Assembly: GCA_028534125.1 (NCBI GenBank)
Contig: CM052816.1
Span: 3,164,001-3,228,000, forward strand
Source: Lama glama
Taxonomy: Eukaryota
Length of the DNA stretch: 64,000 bases
Reading direction: 5' to 3'
The translations under genes were made by a program, and so were the position numbers. Every line of letters begins with the position of its first letter. Position 1 is the first letter of the stretch. Below, piece after piece: positions 9,138 through 60,509 of this stretch. The notes under the pieces are model-generated. The model did no database searches. It saw only the letters and a list, made by a program, of their open reading frames with translations, and was not told where the DNA came from.

Positions 9138-9637
9138 NNNNNNNNNNNNNNNNNNNNNNNNNNNNNNNNNNNNNNNNNNNNNNNNNNNNNNNNNNNNNNN
9201 NNNNNNNNNNNNNNNNNNNNNNNNNNNNNNNNNNNNNNNNNNNNNNNNNNNNNNNNNNNNNNNNNNNNNNNNNNNNNNNNNNNNNNNNNNNNNNNNNNNN
9301 NNNNNNNNNNNNNNNNNNNNNNNNNNNNNNNNNNNNNNNNNNNNNNNNNNNNNNNNNNNNNNNNNNNNNNNNNNNNNNNNNNNNNNNNNNNNNNNNNNNN
9401 NNNNNNNNNNNNNNNNNNNNNNNNNNNNNNNNNNNNNNNNNNNNNNNNNNNNNNNNNNNNNNNNNNNNNNNNNNNNNNNNNNNNNNNNNNNNNNNNNNNN
9501 NNNNNNNNNNNNNNNNNNNNNNNNNNNNNNNNNNNNNNNNNNNNNNNNNNNNNNNNNNNNNNNNNNNNNNNNNNNNNNNNNNNNNNNNNNNNNNNNNNNN
9601 NNNNNNNNNNNNNNNNNNNNNNNNNNNNNNNNNNNNN
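9138..9637. other. Assembly gap (500 N), intron 2
   Basis: Run of exactly 500 N. Confidence 0.99.
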
Positions 9638-24873: not shown

Positions 24874-25373
24874 NNNNNNNNNNNNNNNNNNNNNNNNNNN
24901 NNNNNNNNNNNNNNNNNNNNNNNNNNNNNNNNNNNNNNNNNNNNNNNNNNNNNNNNNNNNNNNNNNNNNNNNNNNNNNNNNNNNNNNNNNNNNNNNNNNN
25001 NNNNNNNNNNNNNNNNNNNNNNNNNNNNNNNNNNNNNNNNNNNNNNNNNNNNNNNNNNNNNNNNNNNNNNNNNNNNNNNNNNNNNNNNNNNNNNNNNNNN
25101 NNNNNNNNNNNNNNNNNNNNNNNNNNNNNNNNNNNNNNNNNNNNNNNNNNNNNNNNNNNNNNNNNNNNNNNNNNNNNNNNNNNNNNNNNNNNNNNNNNNN
25201 NNNNNNNNNNNNNNNNNNNNNNNNNNNNNNNNNNNNNNNNNNNNNNNNNNNNNNNNNNNNNNNNNNNNNNNNNNNNNNNNNNNNNNNNNNNNNNNNNNNN
25301 NNNNNNNNNNNNNNNNNNNNNNNNNNNNNNNNNNNNNNNNNNNNNNNNNNNNNNNNNNNNNNNNNNNNNNNNN
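24874..25373. other. Assembly gap (500 N), intron 3, starting in a CA repeat
   Basis: Run of exactly 500 N preceded by gcacacaca. Confidence 0.99.
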
Positions 25374-28306: not shown

Positions 28307-28405
28307 GGGGCTGGGGGCAGGGAGGGAGAAGCTCAGTGGCAGAGTGCAGACTTAGCATGCACAAGATCCTGGCTTCAATCCCCAGTACCTCCACTGAAAA
28401 AAAAA
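28307..28405 (+). mobile_element. tRNA-derived SINE (camelid type)
   Basis: A-box-like agctcagtggcagag, B-box-like ggcttcaatccc, A tail; imperfect TSD aaaaaccatggt / aaaaagtatggt. Confidence 0.8.
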
Positions 28406-31762: not shown

Positions 31763-32420
31763 GTAAGTTCAGGTCAGCAAATATTAGCAAGTAGCTGCCC
31801 TGTCCCAGACTCGCCCCTATACGGTGAGGAGATGCCTGATGGAGACCATCCCTCCCTTGAAGGAACTGTTTCCCCTGACTGAAGGCCAAGGGAGTGAGCA
31901 GGAAAAGCAAAGTATGAGTTTATTGTTTCATAAGTGCACCCTCTCCTTTCTGGCTACAATGGTGAAACAAACAGAATATTTTCATTAATTGCATCTGATT
32001 AAAATTGATATAAATCATTGTGAAACATACATTTTCTCTGCATTATGTTAATTACCTACGTATTAATGAGAGTTTAAGGAAAAGAAATAGTTTACCAGGT
32101 CAAGCGTTTGTTTCTTTTTCGTATGGATGTGTCAGGCTTTGCAGTCTGCCTTTTTACTGTGATTCCAGGCTCTGAGGGTTTTCTTATTTTGCTGCTCTTT
32201 TCACATTGGATATTTTTTCCCTCAAAGTTGAGTTGGGATATTTGCACAAAGATGTGTCATTTAAAAGACAGCCTTTCAGTTTTAGTCTTTTAGTTTGCTT
32301 CCTCACACCAGCGGTGAACATTTGGTCACTGGTGGACATTTACTTAAGGTCACGAAGCACACACATGTCATGGTTTGCTAGCTTTTCCTGCAGGGGACCT
32401 GTTAGAATTTGTAGGATCAA

Positions 32421-33240
32421 CAAGGTGGTTCTCAACCAGGGGTGACTTTGGTTTAAATCATTTCTTTTCCTTAAAGTTTTGTTGGTAACTGACATAGAGC
32501 AAAGAAAATTTGCTTCACGATGATTTATACTGATTTATCTATTCATCTATCTATCTAAGTATAAGAATAGAAAGGACTTTATTAGGTCTTGCTGCCATAG
32601 ACAGCAGCGGGCCACACAGAGGAGAGGTGTCTGTGTGGGCACCGAGGGCCAGTCGTTGGGTGTTTTATAAGGTTGGGTCACAAGGTGCCTGATCGGCTTG
32701 TGCACGAGTCTCTGCTTGGTTGTAGGTCAGGTAAGAGGTTTAGGGTCTGCAAAGGGCAGTGGAGTTTGATTCTGATAAGATGGGCATTACCTGGGGCTAT
32801 TAGTTCGTTAGGGGAAACACGCCCAATAAATAGTGTACTCTATCTGAGAGCCCAGAAACGGGGGTCGTTGGACTTTGAAGGACGTCAGTGGGCCCAGCTT
32901 TCCATCCTGACAGATTGGCAGTGACAGATCTTTGGAATGGGGGCAAAGGTCTCTTCTTCCGTATCTACTTTCTGCGAAACTGATTTATATCGACTTAAAT
33001 CAGACGCAGTTACCCTAAAATATTCTATTTCTTTCTTTGACTATTTTAACCAACAAAGAAGGGGACCAATGTGTGGAGGCAGTTTGGATTGTCATGACGG
33101 GGAGGTGGATGCTGCTGGTGGGTGGGGGCATCTGGTGGGTAGGGGACAGGGGAACTGCTAACTGTTCTACAATGCGCAGTTCAGCGCTCCACAACAGATT
33201 GTTACTCGGCCTCAAATGTCGGTAGTGCCCAAGGCGCGAA
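32421..33240 (+). mobile_element. MER20-like hAT DNA transposon split by a ~620-bp insert (32451-33070)
   Basis: ggttctcaaccaggggtgactttg start; resumes at ~33074 with ggaggcagtttggattgtcatgac...catctggtgggtag...caaatgtcggtagtgcc. Confidence 0.65.
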
Positions 33241-35596
33241 ATTCTGGATTAGAGTGATCCTTCTCAGACTCTGTGCCGAAGAGCTGGGGTGAAGGAGAAG
33301 GGAAGAGGGAGTCCGGCCAGAGGAGGAGCAGTGTCTTTTGCCTCTGGGGCAGGACACGATGAACTTTTGTGGCGTGCACGTCTGGGAGGTGTGGTGTGTG
33401 GGACGCAGGACAGGCTCCTCTGCCTCAGTGCTCCTCCCGCAGCTTCCCCTAGAAACTGAGATGCCCACATGAGATCCCCCGCTCTTTAAAATATCCCCAC
33501 CAGAGTGTGAATGTCTGGAAGATAGTGACAGCCACTGTCAGCCCTTAAGAGCACAGGGGAGTTTACCAGATCGCCCTCGGTGAGGAGAGGGACACAGGGC
33601 AGATAAATTTCAATAGATGTAAGAAGTCTTTAGTAATTGGGTAGCTGAGGGGCTGCACTGGATTGTTGGATGTGAAGATCAGTGCTGCCTTCTTCACCAG
33701 GACCTTCCTGGATGAGGAGGGAGTCAGGCAGTGTGGCCAGTGGCTGTGACGAGCAAGGAGGCTGTGTCTTCTCATCTCTGGGGAGGCTGCCCAGCAGAGG
33801 CACCACACCTTCTTCAAGGCTCCTTGGTCAGAACATCTTCCTTCCTGGAGACTTCTCTGCCTCCAGGGAGGTAGGATGGGGACAGACATGCCTCGAAAGC
33901 CCCTTGCCACTATGTCCTCATAAAGCACCCTCCTCAGGGTTTGGCTCTTGCACGTCTGTACCCAGAGCTGCAGAGTGGGTCTCAGTGCACAAGTTTGCCA
34001 TGAGCTCATGCTTCCTGCTACGAAAGCCCCCTTAGGCTGGCCCCCTCCGGCCGAGAAGCTGAAATGGAATGTGATGACTTCATGGCTGCTCTGTTCGTTT
34101 ACTTGTTCTTTGTGCTCTCAGGATTAGGCCCAGACATTGTACGGGCCTTTGAGAAACAGAGCAGAGGAAGAGAACTTCCCCTCCCTCCCAAAGGTCTTGT
34201 TGACCCTAGCATGGCACGACTCACTGTCATCTTCCATCCCACGCTGCTGGGCCCTTGCAAAGCCTCCACCCAGCCTGTGAGGCTTCCAGTCAGCTTTCTG
34301 ATTTGGGAGCTGAAGAACCAAAGAGAAATGGGATGGAATAAACCATTTAGCTGTGCTTGGCCGAAACGTTGAGGACCACAATCTGCTACCAAACTTGGCC
34401 TGGGGTGGCGGGAGTTCTGGGAACCATATCAAATTCATCGAGCCCTGATCTAGGTCAGGTCACTGGGGGTATGGTCTGTGAGTGTGTTCCAGTAGAAAGA
34501 GTTGCAGTTTGGGGTCCAAAGCCAGGGTTTTCGTCTTGGCTTTAATTAGCTGTGTGACCCGAAAAACCCTTTCAGCCACACTAGTGTTGAGTTTCCTCAT
34601 CTGAAAATTGAATTTGCTAAGATCTGACTCTCGGGGCTATGGAAGGGTAAAATGAGTCACTGCTTTTATGGGAATTTATAAACATCTCTTCCAACATCAC
34701 ATTTTACAGATGAGAAAATTGAGAGGAGAAGAGAAAAAGGAACGTGCTCAAGTTGAGATAACCAGTGAGTGGCAAGGCTTAGACTAGCTCTTCAGCCTCC
34801 GCTGGTCTCTTCTGACCTATTTGGGAAGCAGTTCGTAGGAATGTGTCCCTTGTTATCACCCGTATTAGAGCTTTGACAAACTAAGTTCCGTGCCCTTTGC
34901 TGGGTCTGCTTTTGCTAAGAGAGGCAGAGCTTGGAGCCTGAAATCAGGCTGCTGGGGTTTGAATCTCCGCTTTGCTGTGTGGCCCTGTGAATGACTTAAA
35001 ACTTCTCCAGCTTTTAGTGTCCTCTTTTAAAAGATGGGGATAATAGTATCTACCTCAGAAGGCTGTGATCAGAATTAAAGAGAAAGAAAATCCATGTAAG
35101 TTGTTTTATCCAGTGGCGAGAGCTGGATAGAGGTCAACCCTTCTTGTTAGTAGCAGTAAGTGGCAGGCATCATTATCACATGCAGGGAAGTGTGTGAAAG
35201 CCCTCTGTAAATTTAAAGCGTGCTACACTATATTCATGCCTAGAGCTGGGCGGGAGGTGGAACCGGGGAATACAGATGATGGGTTAGCTGTCTCCTGGGT
35301 CACATGCCTGCCTGCTGGGGACCAAGGAACAACCGCATGCGAGCGTGGTCCTGGTGATGGACCTCTCAGACTGCTGTTACGTAGGCAAATGCCAGGGATT
35401 CCTGATTGGCCCTGCTCAGGCCCACAGTGTTGGTGGGGAAAGAGAACGCTTCTGAAACTACACGGTTTATATCCTCCTTAAGACCGTCTTAAGAATCTGG
35501 TTCTGCCCTGGGGAGTTCACCTTCTCTCCTGACCAGTTTTTCTCTTTTGACCTATTTGGGAAGAAGCTTGTAGGAATGTGTCCCTTGTTGTCACCC

Positions 35597-47724: not shown

Positions 47725-47884
47725 TTAAAATAATTTATTTATTTTATCTTTAATTTTTAAAAATTTTGTTGGTGGAGAGGTAATTAGGTTTGTTTATTTA
47801 TGTCTAGTGGAGGTGCTGGGGATTGAACCCAGGACCCCACGCATGCTAGGCATGCAATCTACCACTGAGCTATACCTTCCCCAA
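47725..47884 (-). mobile_element. tRNA-derived SINE (camelid type) with target-site duplication
   Basis: Reverse complement reads gggaaggtatagctcagtggtag...gggtcctgggttcaatccccagcacctcca...aataaacaaacctaattacctc plus an A-rich tail; TSD aaagctgattt at 47714-47724 and 47885-47895. Confidence 0.9.
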
Positions 47885-57773: not shown

Positions 57774-57951
57774 GCACCCCTTTCCCAGAGTGTTCAACGG
57801 GTGCAACAGGAAGGAGCTGGACAGGTATCTGCAGTCAGGCGGTGGGATGTGTCTCTCCAACATGCCGGACACCAGGACGCTGTATGGAGGCCGGAGATGT
57901 GGGAATGGGTACCTGGAAGATGGGGAAGAGTGTGACTGTGGGGAGGAAGAG
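57774..57951 (+). CDS. ADAM19: ADAM19 exon 12 (HPFPRVFNGCNRKELDRYLQSGGGMCLSNMPD...CGNGYLEDGEECDCGEEE): end of protease domain, start of disintegrin domain
   Basis: accag| acceptor, GAG|gtaag donor, 178 nt; CGNG...GEECDCG motif. Confidence 0.98.
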
Positions 57952-59355
57952 GTAAGGTGTCATGGTGGTGCTAGTGGGAAGGGAAGAATTTGCATTTGGT
58001 TTCAAATCTCAAGGTCAAAGAGAAGGCAGTTGAAAATTTCTTAGTCATAGGTGTTTCCTGCACACACGTGGCTACCAAGGACCCCATCACAAATAAGAGG
58101 TGGGGAGGAAGCCTTAAATACCGACCATTTTCTGTAGACTCTTCCAGTTTGAGTTTGACACTGTTTGTGTCCAAATCAGGGTGGAGTTCTTGTGAGTTTC
58201 TGGTCTACCCAGAAACCACAGTCTTCACCAGCGGAGCTACAGATGGCCTCGCCAGCCCTCCAGCTGCACTGGGTTTATTCAGAAAGCCATGCGGCCGGAT
58301 ATATGAACTTGAACCTGGACCTTATGAGGATGCTTAAAATAACAAGCTCATGCTGTTTGGCCTGGAGAAGAGATGATTGGAAGGGGGTGTAGGAAGTCCT
58401 GTCAAGTCTGAAGCGGCTTCTGGGAGGAAGAAGGAGCAGGCCTGCTGGTGTGCATGCTCTTTCCTCCCTCTGATCTTCAGAATGAGCGTGGTCGGCATAC
58501 ACGGCACAGCGCTGTCATTTCTAACAGATGCTTGTGTTCGGCAGAAAGCAGAACTGGTTAGTTTCATATCCATTTTTGAAGGATGAAAATATGATTGTTA
58601 ACATACGCAGAACAATTTGTGGGAAATACATGAGTATTCTCTGTGTGTTTGTAGTAAACTATGAGGGTGAGACTGAGGATCTGTATGTGGGAGAAAAGAC
58701 TTTATCTCCTGTATGGTTTGATTTTCCTTTTTAATACCAGCACGTCACTTTCATAATAAAACAAGAACTAGTTAAATGCTCACCACCCCCACCACCATGA
58801 GTTCAGAGAGATCATCCCAGGCCCTTGAGAAAGCAGAGAGCTGTGTCACCACGGAGGGCCCGGTGGGCCTGAGGAGCAGCCTGTGGGTGGGCTTGGCCAC
58901 TCGACATATATTCAGAACAGCTTCTCATTCAACAAGTATTTATTGAGTATGCAGTTCTATGTCGTGTGCCAGGGATAAGAAAATGGATAGCTAGCAAAAA
59001 TAGATGTGATCCCTGTCCTCAAGGAGTGTAGAGTCCAGTGGGGGAAACATACATTGACCAAATAATTGCAAAAATGTGTAAACAGAATTGTGGTAAGGGC
59101 TAGGAGGGCCAATGACATGATGCTAGGAGTGTGTGTGCTGTGAGGGGAGCTGCCCTCATCAGGTGGGAGTGTGAGCTCAGACCCCACATCCGAAGGCTCA
59201 GCTAGGCGCTAGCCAGGAGCGCAGGAGGGAAGGCATGCCTTGAGGTGGGAGGAGACGTGGTGTGTCAGAGGGGAAGGGACACAGGTCTGCCTGGAGCCCA
59301 GGGTGGTGGAAGATTCATGGAGAGAAAGTGCTCTTGTTCCTGCTCGGAGGGGCAG

Positions 59356-59431
59356 ACAGATGGATGAGTATCTCTGGTCCGGCGGTGGCATGTGTCTCTC
59401 CAACATGCCAGACCTGGACAGCGATGGTTAA
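59356..59431 (+). pseudogene. Decayed partial duplicate of ADAM19 exon 12 (pseudo-exon) in intron 12
   Basis: 59358-59413 aligns without gaps to 57815-57870 at 46/56 nt by hand count; translates QMDEYLWSGGGMCLSNMPD versus ELDRYLQSGGGMCLSNMPD. Confidence 0.85.
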
Positions 59432-60419
59432 GATGTGCATGAGGAGCATGGGGTGGGCCCCAGGCAGACATGGCTTGAGTTCAGCTCCCACCCGTGGCAG
59501 GTGTGTGCCTCCACCAGCCCCTGGGCTTGTCTGAGCCGCGGTTTCCCCTTGTGTGGAATGGGCAGCATCTTGCCTGGGATGCCTGCTGGGCTGGGCCCAG
59601 GCGTGGAGCCAGCACGTTGTCCAGAAGTGCTTAATCGGTGGGCCTGTGACTAGAGCAGGAGTGTGATAAGGGTGCTCTGAGTCACGGGGCATCTCATCAC
59701 CTTTTTGAATCTCATGCTGTGTGTCAGCAAGGCAGGAAGGAAGAGAGGAGAGCATGGAGCCCCTAGAGAAAGGTCCAGGCCGGCGAGGGTTGAGGAGGAG
59801 CCAGAGATGGTGAGAGAAGCCTAGGGAAGCAGGCCCGGGAGCTGACATAATCCGACTGTTCACAGATTGTTGTAGCGTTGCCTTACTCCCAGCGGCCTCT
59901 TTCTATGGGATAATAAGGCTTGGGAGTGTTGGGGGGCAGGGAGGGCAGCAGTACAAGACAGTCTCTGGGTGTTCTGCTGGGAATAAGAAAAGCAGATCCC
60001 AGAATTTCCCTGTAATGTAATACTATGCTGAGAATCATGTTTCAGAGGAATTCATGATTACAAAGAGAAACGAGTATATCGTATTAAGTCAAAAAGCAGT
60101 AGGGACACTATGATACTGTAAAACAAGGATATGTCGATTTAGGTGTACAGGAAAAATGCCTAGAGGGACAGTCACAATCAAAATGCAGTTGTGCCTAAGC
60201 TGTGTGTTACCGATGATGGTGCATGTGTATATTTTCTGCAGTATGTACACATTACCTTACTGATAAAGCTGTAAGGAGTTTTTTGGTAAAGACTTCCCGG
60301 GGAGCTGGGGCTCCAGGGGCATGTGGGGCAGGGTAGGGGGAAAGGCCCTCACCCTGCCTAGTCTCCTGTCTCCTGCCCTGCTGCCCAGAGGCTCACGCCC
60401 CCTCCCACTGCCCCCGCAG

Positions 60420-60509
60420 GAATGTGATAACCCCTGCTGCAATGCCTCTAACTGCACCCTGAGAGAGGGGGCGGAGTGTGCCCACGGCTCCTGCTGTCAC
60501 CGCTGTAAG
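60420..60509 (+). CDS. ADAM19: ADAM19 exon 13 ([30 protein letters not shown]), disintegrin domain
   Basis: ccgcag| acceptor, AAG|gtaagt donor, 90 nt; disintegrin cysteine spacing. Confidence 0.98.

Follow-up and report, generated by a model that had tools for sequence, protein, structure and literature searches.

Why does an intron of ADAM19 carry, in the same orientation, a stretch that repeats part of the exon immediately before it, and has that stretch been put to any use? The question arises in a 64,000-nucleotide (nt) segment of the llama (Lama glama) genome (assembly GCA_028534125.1, contig CM052816.1, positions 3,164,001 to 3,228,000), hereafter the window, in which ADAM19 lies on the + strand and in which all coordinates are counted from the first letter. 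Intron 12 of the gene is ~2.47 kb long, and a 56-nt match to exon 12 is located in its middle. An earlier reading of the letters alone, hereafter the sequence-only reading, took this match to be what remains of a whole exon duplicated together with its splice flanks. We find by sequence comparison that the segment is a genuine, single copy and is derived from ADAM19 exon 12 itself. It is probably a non-functional, neutral relic of a short local duplication. The following features are needed to follow the argument:

57789..57951, + strand: ADAM19 exon 12, 163 nt (1 nt plus 54 codons), delimited by its AG/GT boundaries, its open frame and the tblastn exon map.
57815..57870, + strand: source segment within exon 12 that is repeated in the intron, delimited by alignment to the copy.
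59358..59413, + strand: intronic copy of the exon-12 segment, identical to the source at 46 of 56 positions overall and at 40 of 46 over 59368-59413.
60420..60509, + strand: ADAM19 exon 13, the next real exon, 90 nt, placed by the tblastn exon map.

The copy is on the same strand as its source and 1543 nt downstream of it. A blastn search with exon 12 and its flanks against the window recovers it at 40/46 (87%) with E=1.3e-10, and all remaining matches in the window have E values of at least 0.77. The core alignment score was reached by none of 1000 random window segments and by none of 1000 shuffles. The match of 46 out of 56 nt between 59358-59413 and 57815-57870, first noticed by the sequence-only reading, is thus secure. 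We extended the comparison to the 2.35-Gb assembly with queries of 131 nt, 1401 nt and 30 amino acids (aa), which returned the copy and exon 12 only, plus one unrelated 53-nt match. A repeat-family origin of the copy is ruled out, as the copy and exon 12 are the sole two sites in the assembly.

The identity of the host gene and of the source exon is equally well established. The exon at 57789-57951 translates to VFNGCNRKELDRYLQSGGGMCLSNMPDTRTLYGGRRCGNGYLEDGEECDCGEEE, a peptide that is 98% identical to ADAM19 from dog, rabbit and dugong in a protein homology search (281 of 289 candidates passed E<=0.001) and that runs from the last part of the metalloprotease domain into the beginning of the disintegrin domain. 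With a 919-aa ortholog as the query, tblastn detects 13 ADAM19 exon matches in the window, covering residues 35-533. The exon in question is the 11th of these, and the number 12 would be consistent with an exon 1 located upstream of the window. Paralogous ADAM exons from the same genome match the copy at 76-78% over merely 32-33 nt. This identifies exon 12 itself as the source, rules out an origin from an ADAM paralog, and agrees with the assignment of both host gene and exon made from the letters alone. At the paralog loci themselves, no comparable copy was found within 1.5 kb of the homologous exon (8 of 8 loci checked).

How much of the exon was copied? The intron holds a counterpart for 56 of the 163 nt of exon 12, and the other 107 nt have none. 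Both ends of the homology fall inside the exon, so that its first 26 nt (5') and its last 81 nt (3') are unmatched. Similarity of the upstream flank is at chance level (local score 10.0 versus 8.4±1.6 for random window segments, 15.9% of which reach the score), and so is that of the downstream flank when compared with the exon's last 81 nt and its donor region (10.4 versus 9.3±2.2, reached by 26.6% of random segments). A collinear chain test was designed to be generous to homology: the core was kept, long gaps were made very cheap and the flanks were swapped for random window DNA. It gave a score of 49.2 versus 45.4±4.0, and 16.9% of the random constructs reach that score. The echoes of exon 12 that the sequence-only reading had seen in both flanks are therefore no stronger than those in random controls, an outcome that this reading had itself named as a refutation. 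Its inference that the whole exon was duplicated with its splice flanks is not borne out either, given the chance-level flanks, the 107 unmatched nt and the candidate splice sites described below, which are not splice-like. If a whole exon had been copied and had decayed neutrally, the other 107 nt should persist like the core, because the exon partner is constrained. Short ambiguous repeats are present at the edges of the copy (CAGAC at 59354-59358 and at 59409-59413), and CTGGACAG adjoins the end of the copy and also opens the source segment; these repeats leave any junction microhomology ambiguous.

A second pair of duplicates in the window, which matches the exon-12 copy and its source in size and layout, served as a control:

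34806..34861, + strand: first member of the intron-4 duplicate, 56 nt, 91% identical to 35541-35596.
35541..35596, + strand: second member of the intron-4 duplicate, on the same strand and 735 nt from the first.

This pair has sharp ends, is purely intronic, and its two members are the sole copies in the assembly. Short same-strand duplication of a patch over about 1 kb thus arises here without an exon. A self-comparison of the window yields just four two-copy pairs at E<=1e-6, and in a second self-comparison three of the six non-self matches at this threshold are direct and no more than 3 kb apart. Pairs this close make up a small share of the possible pairs in 64 kb, which points to a local duplication process. 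Taken together, the exon-12 copy and the intron-4 pair document a local process that copies patches of ~56 nt to a position 0.7-1.5 kb downstream on the same strand.

Could the copy be used as an exon? The nearest candidates for splice sites are:

59358..59359, + strand: would-be acceptor AG, with a pyrimidine fraction of 0.35 at positions -20 to -4.
59427..59428, + strand: would-be donor GT (ATG/GTTAAG), agreeing with 5 of 9 consensus positions.

Sites were scored against the general splice-site consensus, and the scores are simple consensus counts rather than the output of a trained splice model. All 11 real ADAM19 acceptors in the window have pyrimidine fractions of 0.65-0.88, and a fraction of 0.35 or more is found at 75% of the 226 AGs in intron 12. 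The 10 real donors in the window all agree with the consensus at 6-9 of 9 positions, and 39% of the 166 GTs in intron 12 reach a score of 5 or more. By these counts there are no usable splice sites around the copy, and its candidate AG and GT are like background sites of intron 12. In silico inclusion of 59360-59426 (67 nt) continues the parental frame, adds 24 residues and ends at a stop codon 7 nt into exon 13. The copy thus has in silico one property of a poison or decoy exon, the premature stop upon inclusion, and lacks another, functional splice sites. It likewise shares with tandem exon duplicates its homology to a nearby same-strand exon of the same gene, without the full exon coverage and the compatible length and phase: the 67-nt would-be exon shifts the frame. 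Because of this mismatch in length and phase with the parent exon, the copy cannot serve as a mutually exclusive alternative to it.

At the protein level, the peptide of the copy is present in none of 120 ADAM19-like proteins from the exon-12 peptide search. A 72-aa open frame runs through the copy (59213-59428); it had no match in a first protein homology search, which also missed the real exon-12 open reading frames (ORFs) sharing the core. Compared with 1.84 billion representative proteins, the frame has one match, a protein of 1477 aa (P0121) that is matched in 28 stretches, by frame residues 1-21, outside the copy. The frame has no start codon before residue 50 and gene callers would not report it; for lack of that start codon, protein searches with it are uninformative.

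The sequence-only reading had drawn attention to 12 codons, SGGGMCLSNMPD, in which exon and copy differ by silent changes alone, and had seen in this a possible hint of selection on the copy. Codon comparison confirms the pattern itself, with three of three differences silent (TCA/TCC, GGG/GGC and CCG/CCA). The pattern depends on where the block is cut, because the adjoining six codons, to the left of this core and still within the 56-nt match, hold five replacement differences, along with two silent ones. All 18 aligned codons together have five silent and five replacement nucleotide differences, for 11.2 silent (S) and 42.8 replacement (N) sites and a pN/pS of 0.26. We compared these counts with a model of a constrained exon and a neutral copy, in which silent changes accumulate on both lineages and replacement changes in the copy alone. 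The probability of at least five silent differences among ten is then 0.23, and the codon pattern is compatible with free decay of the copy beside a constrained exon. The 18 aligned codons give no evidence that the copy is under selection at the protein level, and the suggestion of selection is not supported. The caution that came with it, namely that a sample of three silent changes is small and could simply reflect drift at silent sites of the real exon, was well placed in view of the pN/pS ratio and of this probability. Six of the ten mismatches sit in two runs of three adjacent bases, and each run may be a single mutational event.

The best-kept part of the copy can also be folded, and a longer inverted repeat brackets it:

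59378..59418, + strand: stem-loop made up of the best-kept 36 nt and 5 flanking nt; its inner stem is perfect over 8 bp, its outer stem has 5 bp and its loop 9 nt.
59282..59300, + strand: left arm of the inverted repeat bracketing the copy, 19 nt, 89% complementary to 59454-59472.
59454..59472, + strand: right arm of the inverted repeat bracketing the copy, pairing with 59282-59300.

As RNA, the stem-loop has a minimum free energy (MFE) of -18.4 kcal/mol (z=-3.1; 1 of 200 shuffles folds at least as well), and as DNA an MFE of -8.8 (z=-2.4). The matching stretch of exon 12 has an MFE of -9.9 kcal/mol (z=+0.5). Among 4186 windows of 41 nt the hairpin belongs to the 0.7% that fold best, and among the 896 GC-matched ones to the best 1.0%. 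When the three core differences are reverted, the MFE of the copy's hairpin is -13.3 instead of -18.4, and among all 5,940 third-position triples 2.8% reach the latter value. The stem is largely dictated by the Met-Cys...Asn-Met-Pro codons. Since bases dictated by the protein set much of the stem, the third positions alone are free to mismatch, which provides a non-protein reason for the 'silent' differences. The 204-nt fold that includes the bracketing repeat has a z of -2.25, and 5.4% of 93 GC-matched windows fold equally well. A search of the region against Rfam found no family; there were two sub-threshold chance matches, neither of them at the copy. The hairpin statistics are all post hoc and of modest strength.

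We propose that an internal piece of exon 12, 46-56 nt long, was copied once and in the same orientation into intron 12, presumably by a small local duplication or by a templated insertion during DNA repair or replication. Without splice signals of its own the copy would not have been used as an exon, and would have decayed as ordinary intron DNA. That it can still be recognised would be due to the real exon, which selection on the protein keeps almost unchanged: with one partner nearly fixed, the two sequences diverge roughly half as fast as usual. Silent drift of the real exon, mixed with chance, would then account for the silent differences in the best-preserved stretch. With silent sites counted for two lineages and replacement sites for one, the ten differences correspond to ~0.15 differences per site per lineage, compared with ~0.045 for the intron-4 pair. 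The exon copy therefore looks older than the intron-4 pair, and its age may be such that several mammalian families share it, an estimate that comes from tiny numbers.

Several observations count against this explanation. For the 12-codon core, a block picked after the data had been seen, three silent differences out of three have a probability of 0.048 under the same model, uncorrected for the choice of block. The mismatches are uneven, with seven in the left 20 nt (65% identity) and three in the right 36 nt (92% identity; Fisher P=0.025, post hoc). The copy's hairpin is made more stable by all three core differences, and 2.4% of 20,000 random triple substitutions reach -18.4. Splicing at 59358-9 and 59427-8 would keep the parental codon frame, an outcome with a 1-in-3 chance. 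Finally, silent sites have diverged strongly (5 differences over 11.2 sites, pS=0.45), which suggests that the event is old, and at such an age the intronic flank homology of a larger duplication could have faded.

The last point bears on the reading in which all of exon 12, splice flanks included, was anciently duplicated in tandem, after which the flanks faded and deletions within the exon left the 56-nt core. The position of the copy, downstream on the same strand and in the adjacent intron, is the classic layout of a tandem exon duplicate (PMC9013439), the would-be exon is in the parental frame, and at the divergence given above freely evolving flanks could be hard to detect. We nevertheless consider a whole-exon origin unlikely, as the flank and chain tests are at chance even so, at least two deletions ending exactly at the core edges would be required, and the missing 26 nt and 81 nt should persist. 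The 56-nt pair in intron 4 shows that patches of such size arise directly, and the eight paralog loci checked have no similar copy within 1.5 kb of the homologous exon. The uneven mismatches could instead reflect an older, largely decayed duplicate in which a short tract of gene conversion, templated by exon 12, restored similarity over a patch of 36-46 nt. Such a tract would account for the step in identity between the left and right parts and for the sharp fall to chance level outside the match, but it needs flanking homology to start, and none is detectable. The test for heterogeneity was moreover made after the fact on ten mismatches, six of which may amount to two events. We regard gene conversion as highly improbable.

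The silent differences and the hairpin raise the possibility that the copy has a function in the ADAM19 pre-mRNA, either as a rare poison exon or as a structured intronic element or decoy acting on the excision of intron 12, with its core kept by selection. This would fit the in-frame inclusion that ends in a stop, the three silent differences out of three, the strengthening of the 41-nt hairpin by each of them (-18.4 versus -9.9 for the exon), and the 19-nt inverted repeat around the copy. Decoy exons that regulate intron retention are documented, too (PMC6097662, PMC7373989). However, the splice signals are no better than background intronic AG and GT, every statistic in favour was obtained post hoc and falls in the range from 0.01 to 0.05, and the larger fold is matched by 5.4% of GC-matched 204-nt windows. 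The absence of an Rfam match and the left 20 nt of the copy, already 35% diverged, argue in the same direction, and a function of this kind seems very unlikely to us. Its more specific form, in which the copy was kept or reshaped as a structured intronic RNA element with a stem-loop (13-bp interrupted stem) inside a larger stem, has the slenderest prospects of all. In this view the three differences of the best-kept 36 nt are confined to third codon positions since the bases set by the protein are paired already, and each of them closes a mismatch of the stem. Such a putative element could influence how intron 12 is removed, or serve as a decoy by attracting factors whose normal target is the same sequence in exon 12. 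Should the copy prove conserved together with its hairpin, it would represent an exon fragment recruited as an intronic RNA structure.

Segments of introns that resemble annotated exons are common. According to Ivanov & Pervouchine 2022 (PMC9013439), human genes contain 4,027 unannotated non-repeat intronic targets homologous to exons, and an earlier survey cited there (Letunic, Copley & Bork 2002) counted more than 2,000 unannotated candidates. The llama segment is of this class: it is intronic, on the same strand, at least 80% homologous at the nucleotide level to an exon of the same gene, and belongs to no known interspersed repeat. Unlike tandem exon duplicates, it represents about one third of an exon, departs from the exon in length and phase and lacks usable splice sites. 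Poison and decoy exons (PMC6097662, PMC7373989) resemble it in being exon-like intronic segments whose inclusion gives a premature stop, which for the copy holds in silico. Functional splice sites are described as essential for decoy exon activity in PMC7373989, and the copy differs in having no good ones.

As to origin, the copy is like templated insertions, products of template switching in break repair, both those of the MMBIR type (break-induced replication mediated by microhomology) known as MMB-TI (PMC8421209) and those made by polymerase-theta end joining (PMC4490562, PMC4032859), in its length of tens of nt, its nearby template and its sharp boundaries. Templated insertions of at least 25 bp occur as human germline variants at about 100 per individual (PMC8421209). 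MMB-TI are inverted copies of templates within 100 bp (PMC8421209); the llama copy is direct and 1543 nt from its template, and falls outside that definition. The likeness to templated insertions is thus best seen as a resemblance in origin, not as membership.

A literature search found no paper pairing ADAM19 with 'exon duplication', and among the matches listed on alternative splicing of ADAM19 none concerns exon 12 by title or abstract. The copy is one more example of a catalogued class, intronic fragments homologous to a neighbouring exon, and in this respect matters little; judged from its sequence, it is most likely without function. Its broader interest is that patches derived from exons stay visible longer than those derived from introns, as one partner is frozen by selection, and this can give the false impression of selection on the copy.

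A degenerate pattern of the core had no matches in metagenome contigs or in prokaryote genome contigs, and scans of these collections turned up no mammalian ADAM19 intron. When related loci were scanned with P0022, a JGI-derived ORF of exon 12, 41 were recovered, none of them a mammalian ADAM19 ortholog with its downstream intron. Among them, L005 shares 81% identity with the exon-12 peptide over its second half and looks like a non-mammalian ADAM19. Its 2.3 kb of downstream sequence has no second match, a weak negative from a single locus. Among 24 sequencing runs, the DNA runs, under five organism labels, contain 0.94-0.98 of the sampled words and the RNA runs 0.12-0.44; such shares carry no information by themselves on splicing, expression or conservation of the copy.

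Intron 12 has two further features of its own. An inverted repeat of 18 nt, 83% complementary, joins 57960-57977, which begins 9 nt past the exon-12 donor, to 58783-58800, and as predicted from its sequence could loop out ~800 nt of the intron. Separately, a 53-nt stretch (58997-59049) has an 85% match to one site on another contig of the assembly.

Internal repetition of the window is very low for 64 kb of mammalian intron, with 896 bases that have a non-self match at E<=1e-6 when the BLAST low-complexity filter is on. The other duplicates detected are a 142-nt direct pair at 76% identity (898-1038 and 2750-2886), two inverted pairs in intron 4 (31964-32094 with 32454-33035) and a 66-nt inverted pair whose members are 19 kb apart (28330-28395 and 47806-47871). 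These are probably fragments of old transposons. Two runs of exactly 500 N, either gaps of the assembly or withheld sequence, are located inside ADAM19 introns, at 9138-9637 and 24874-25373.

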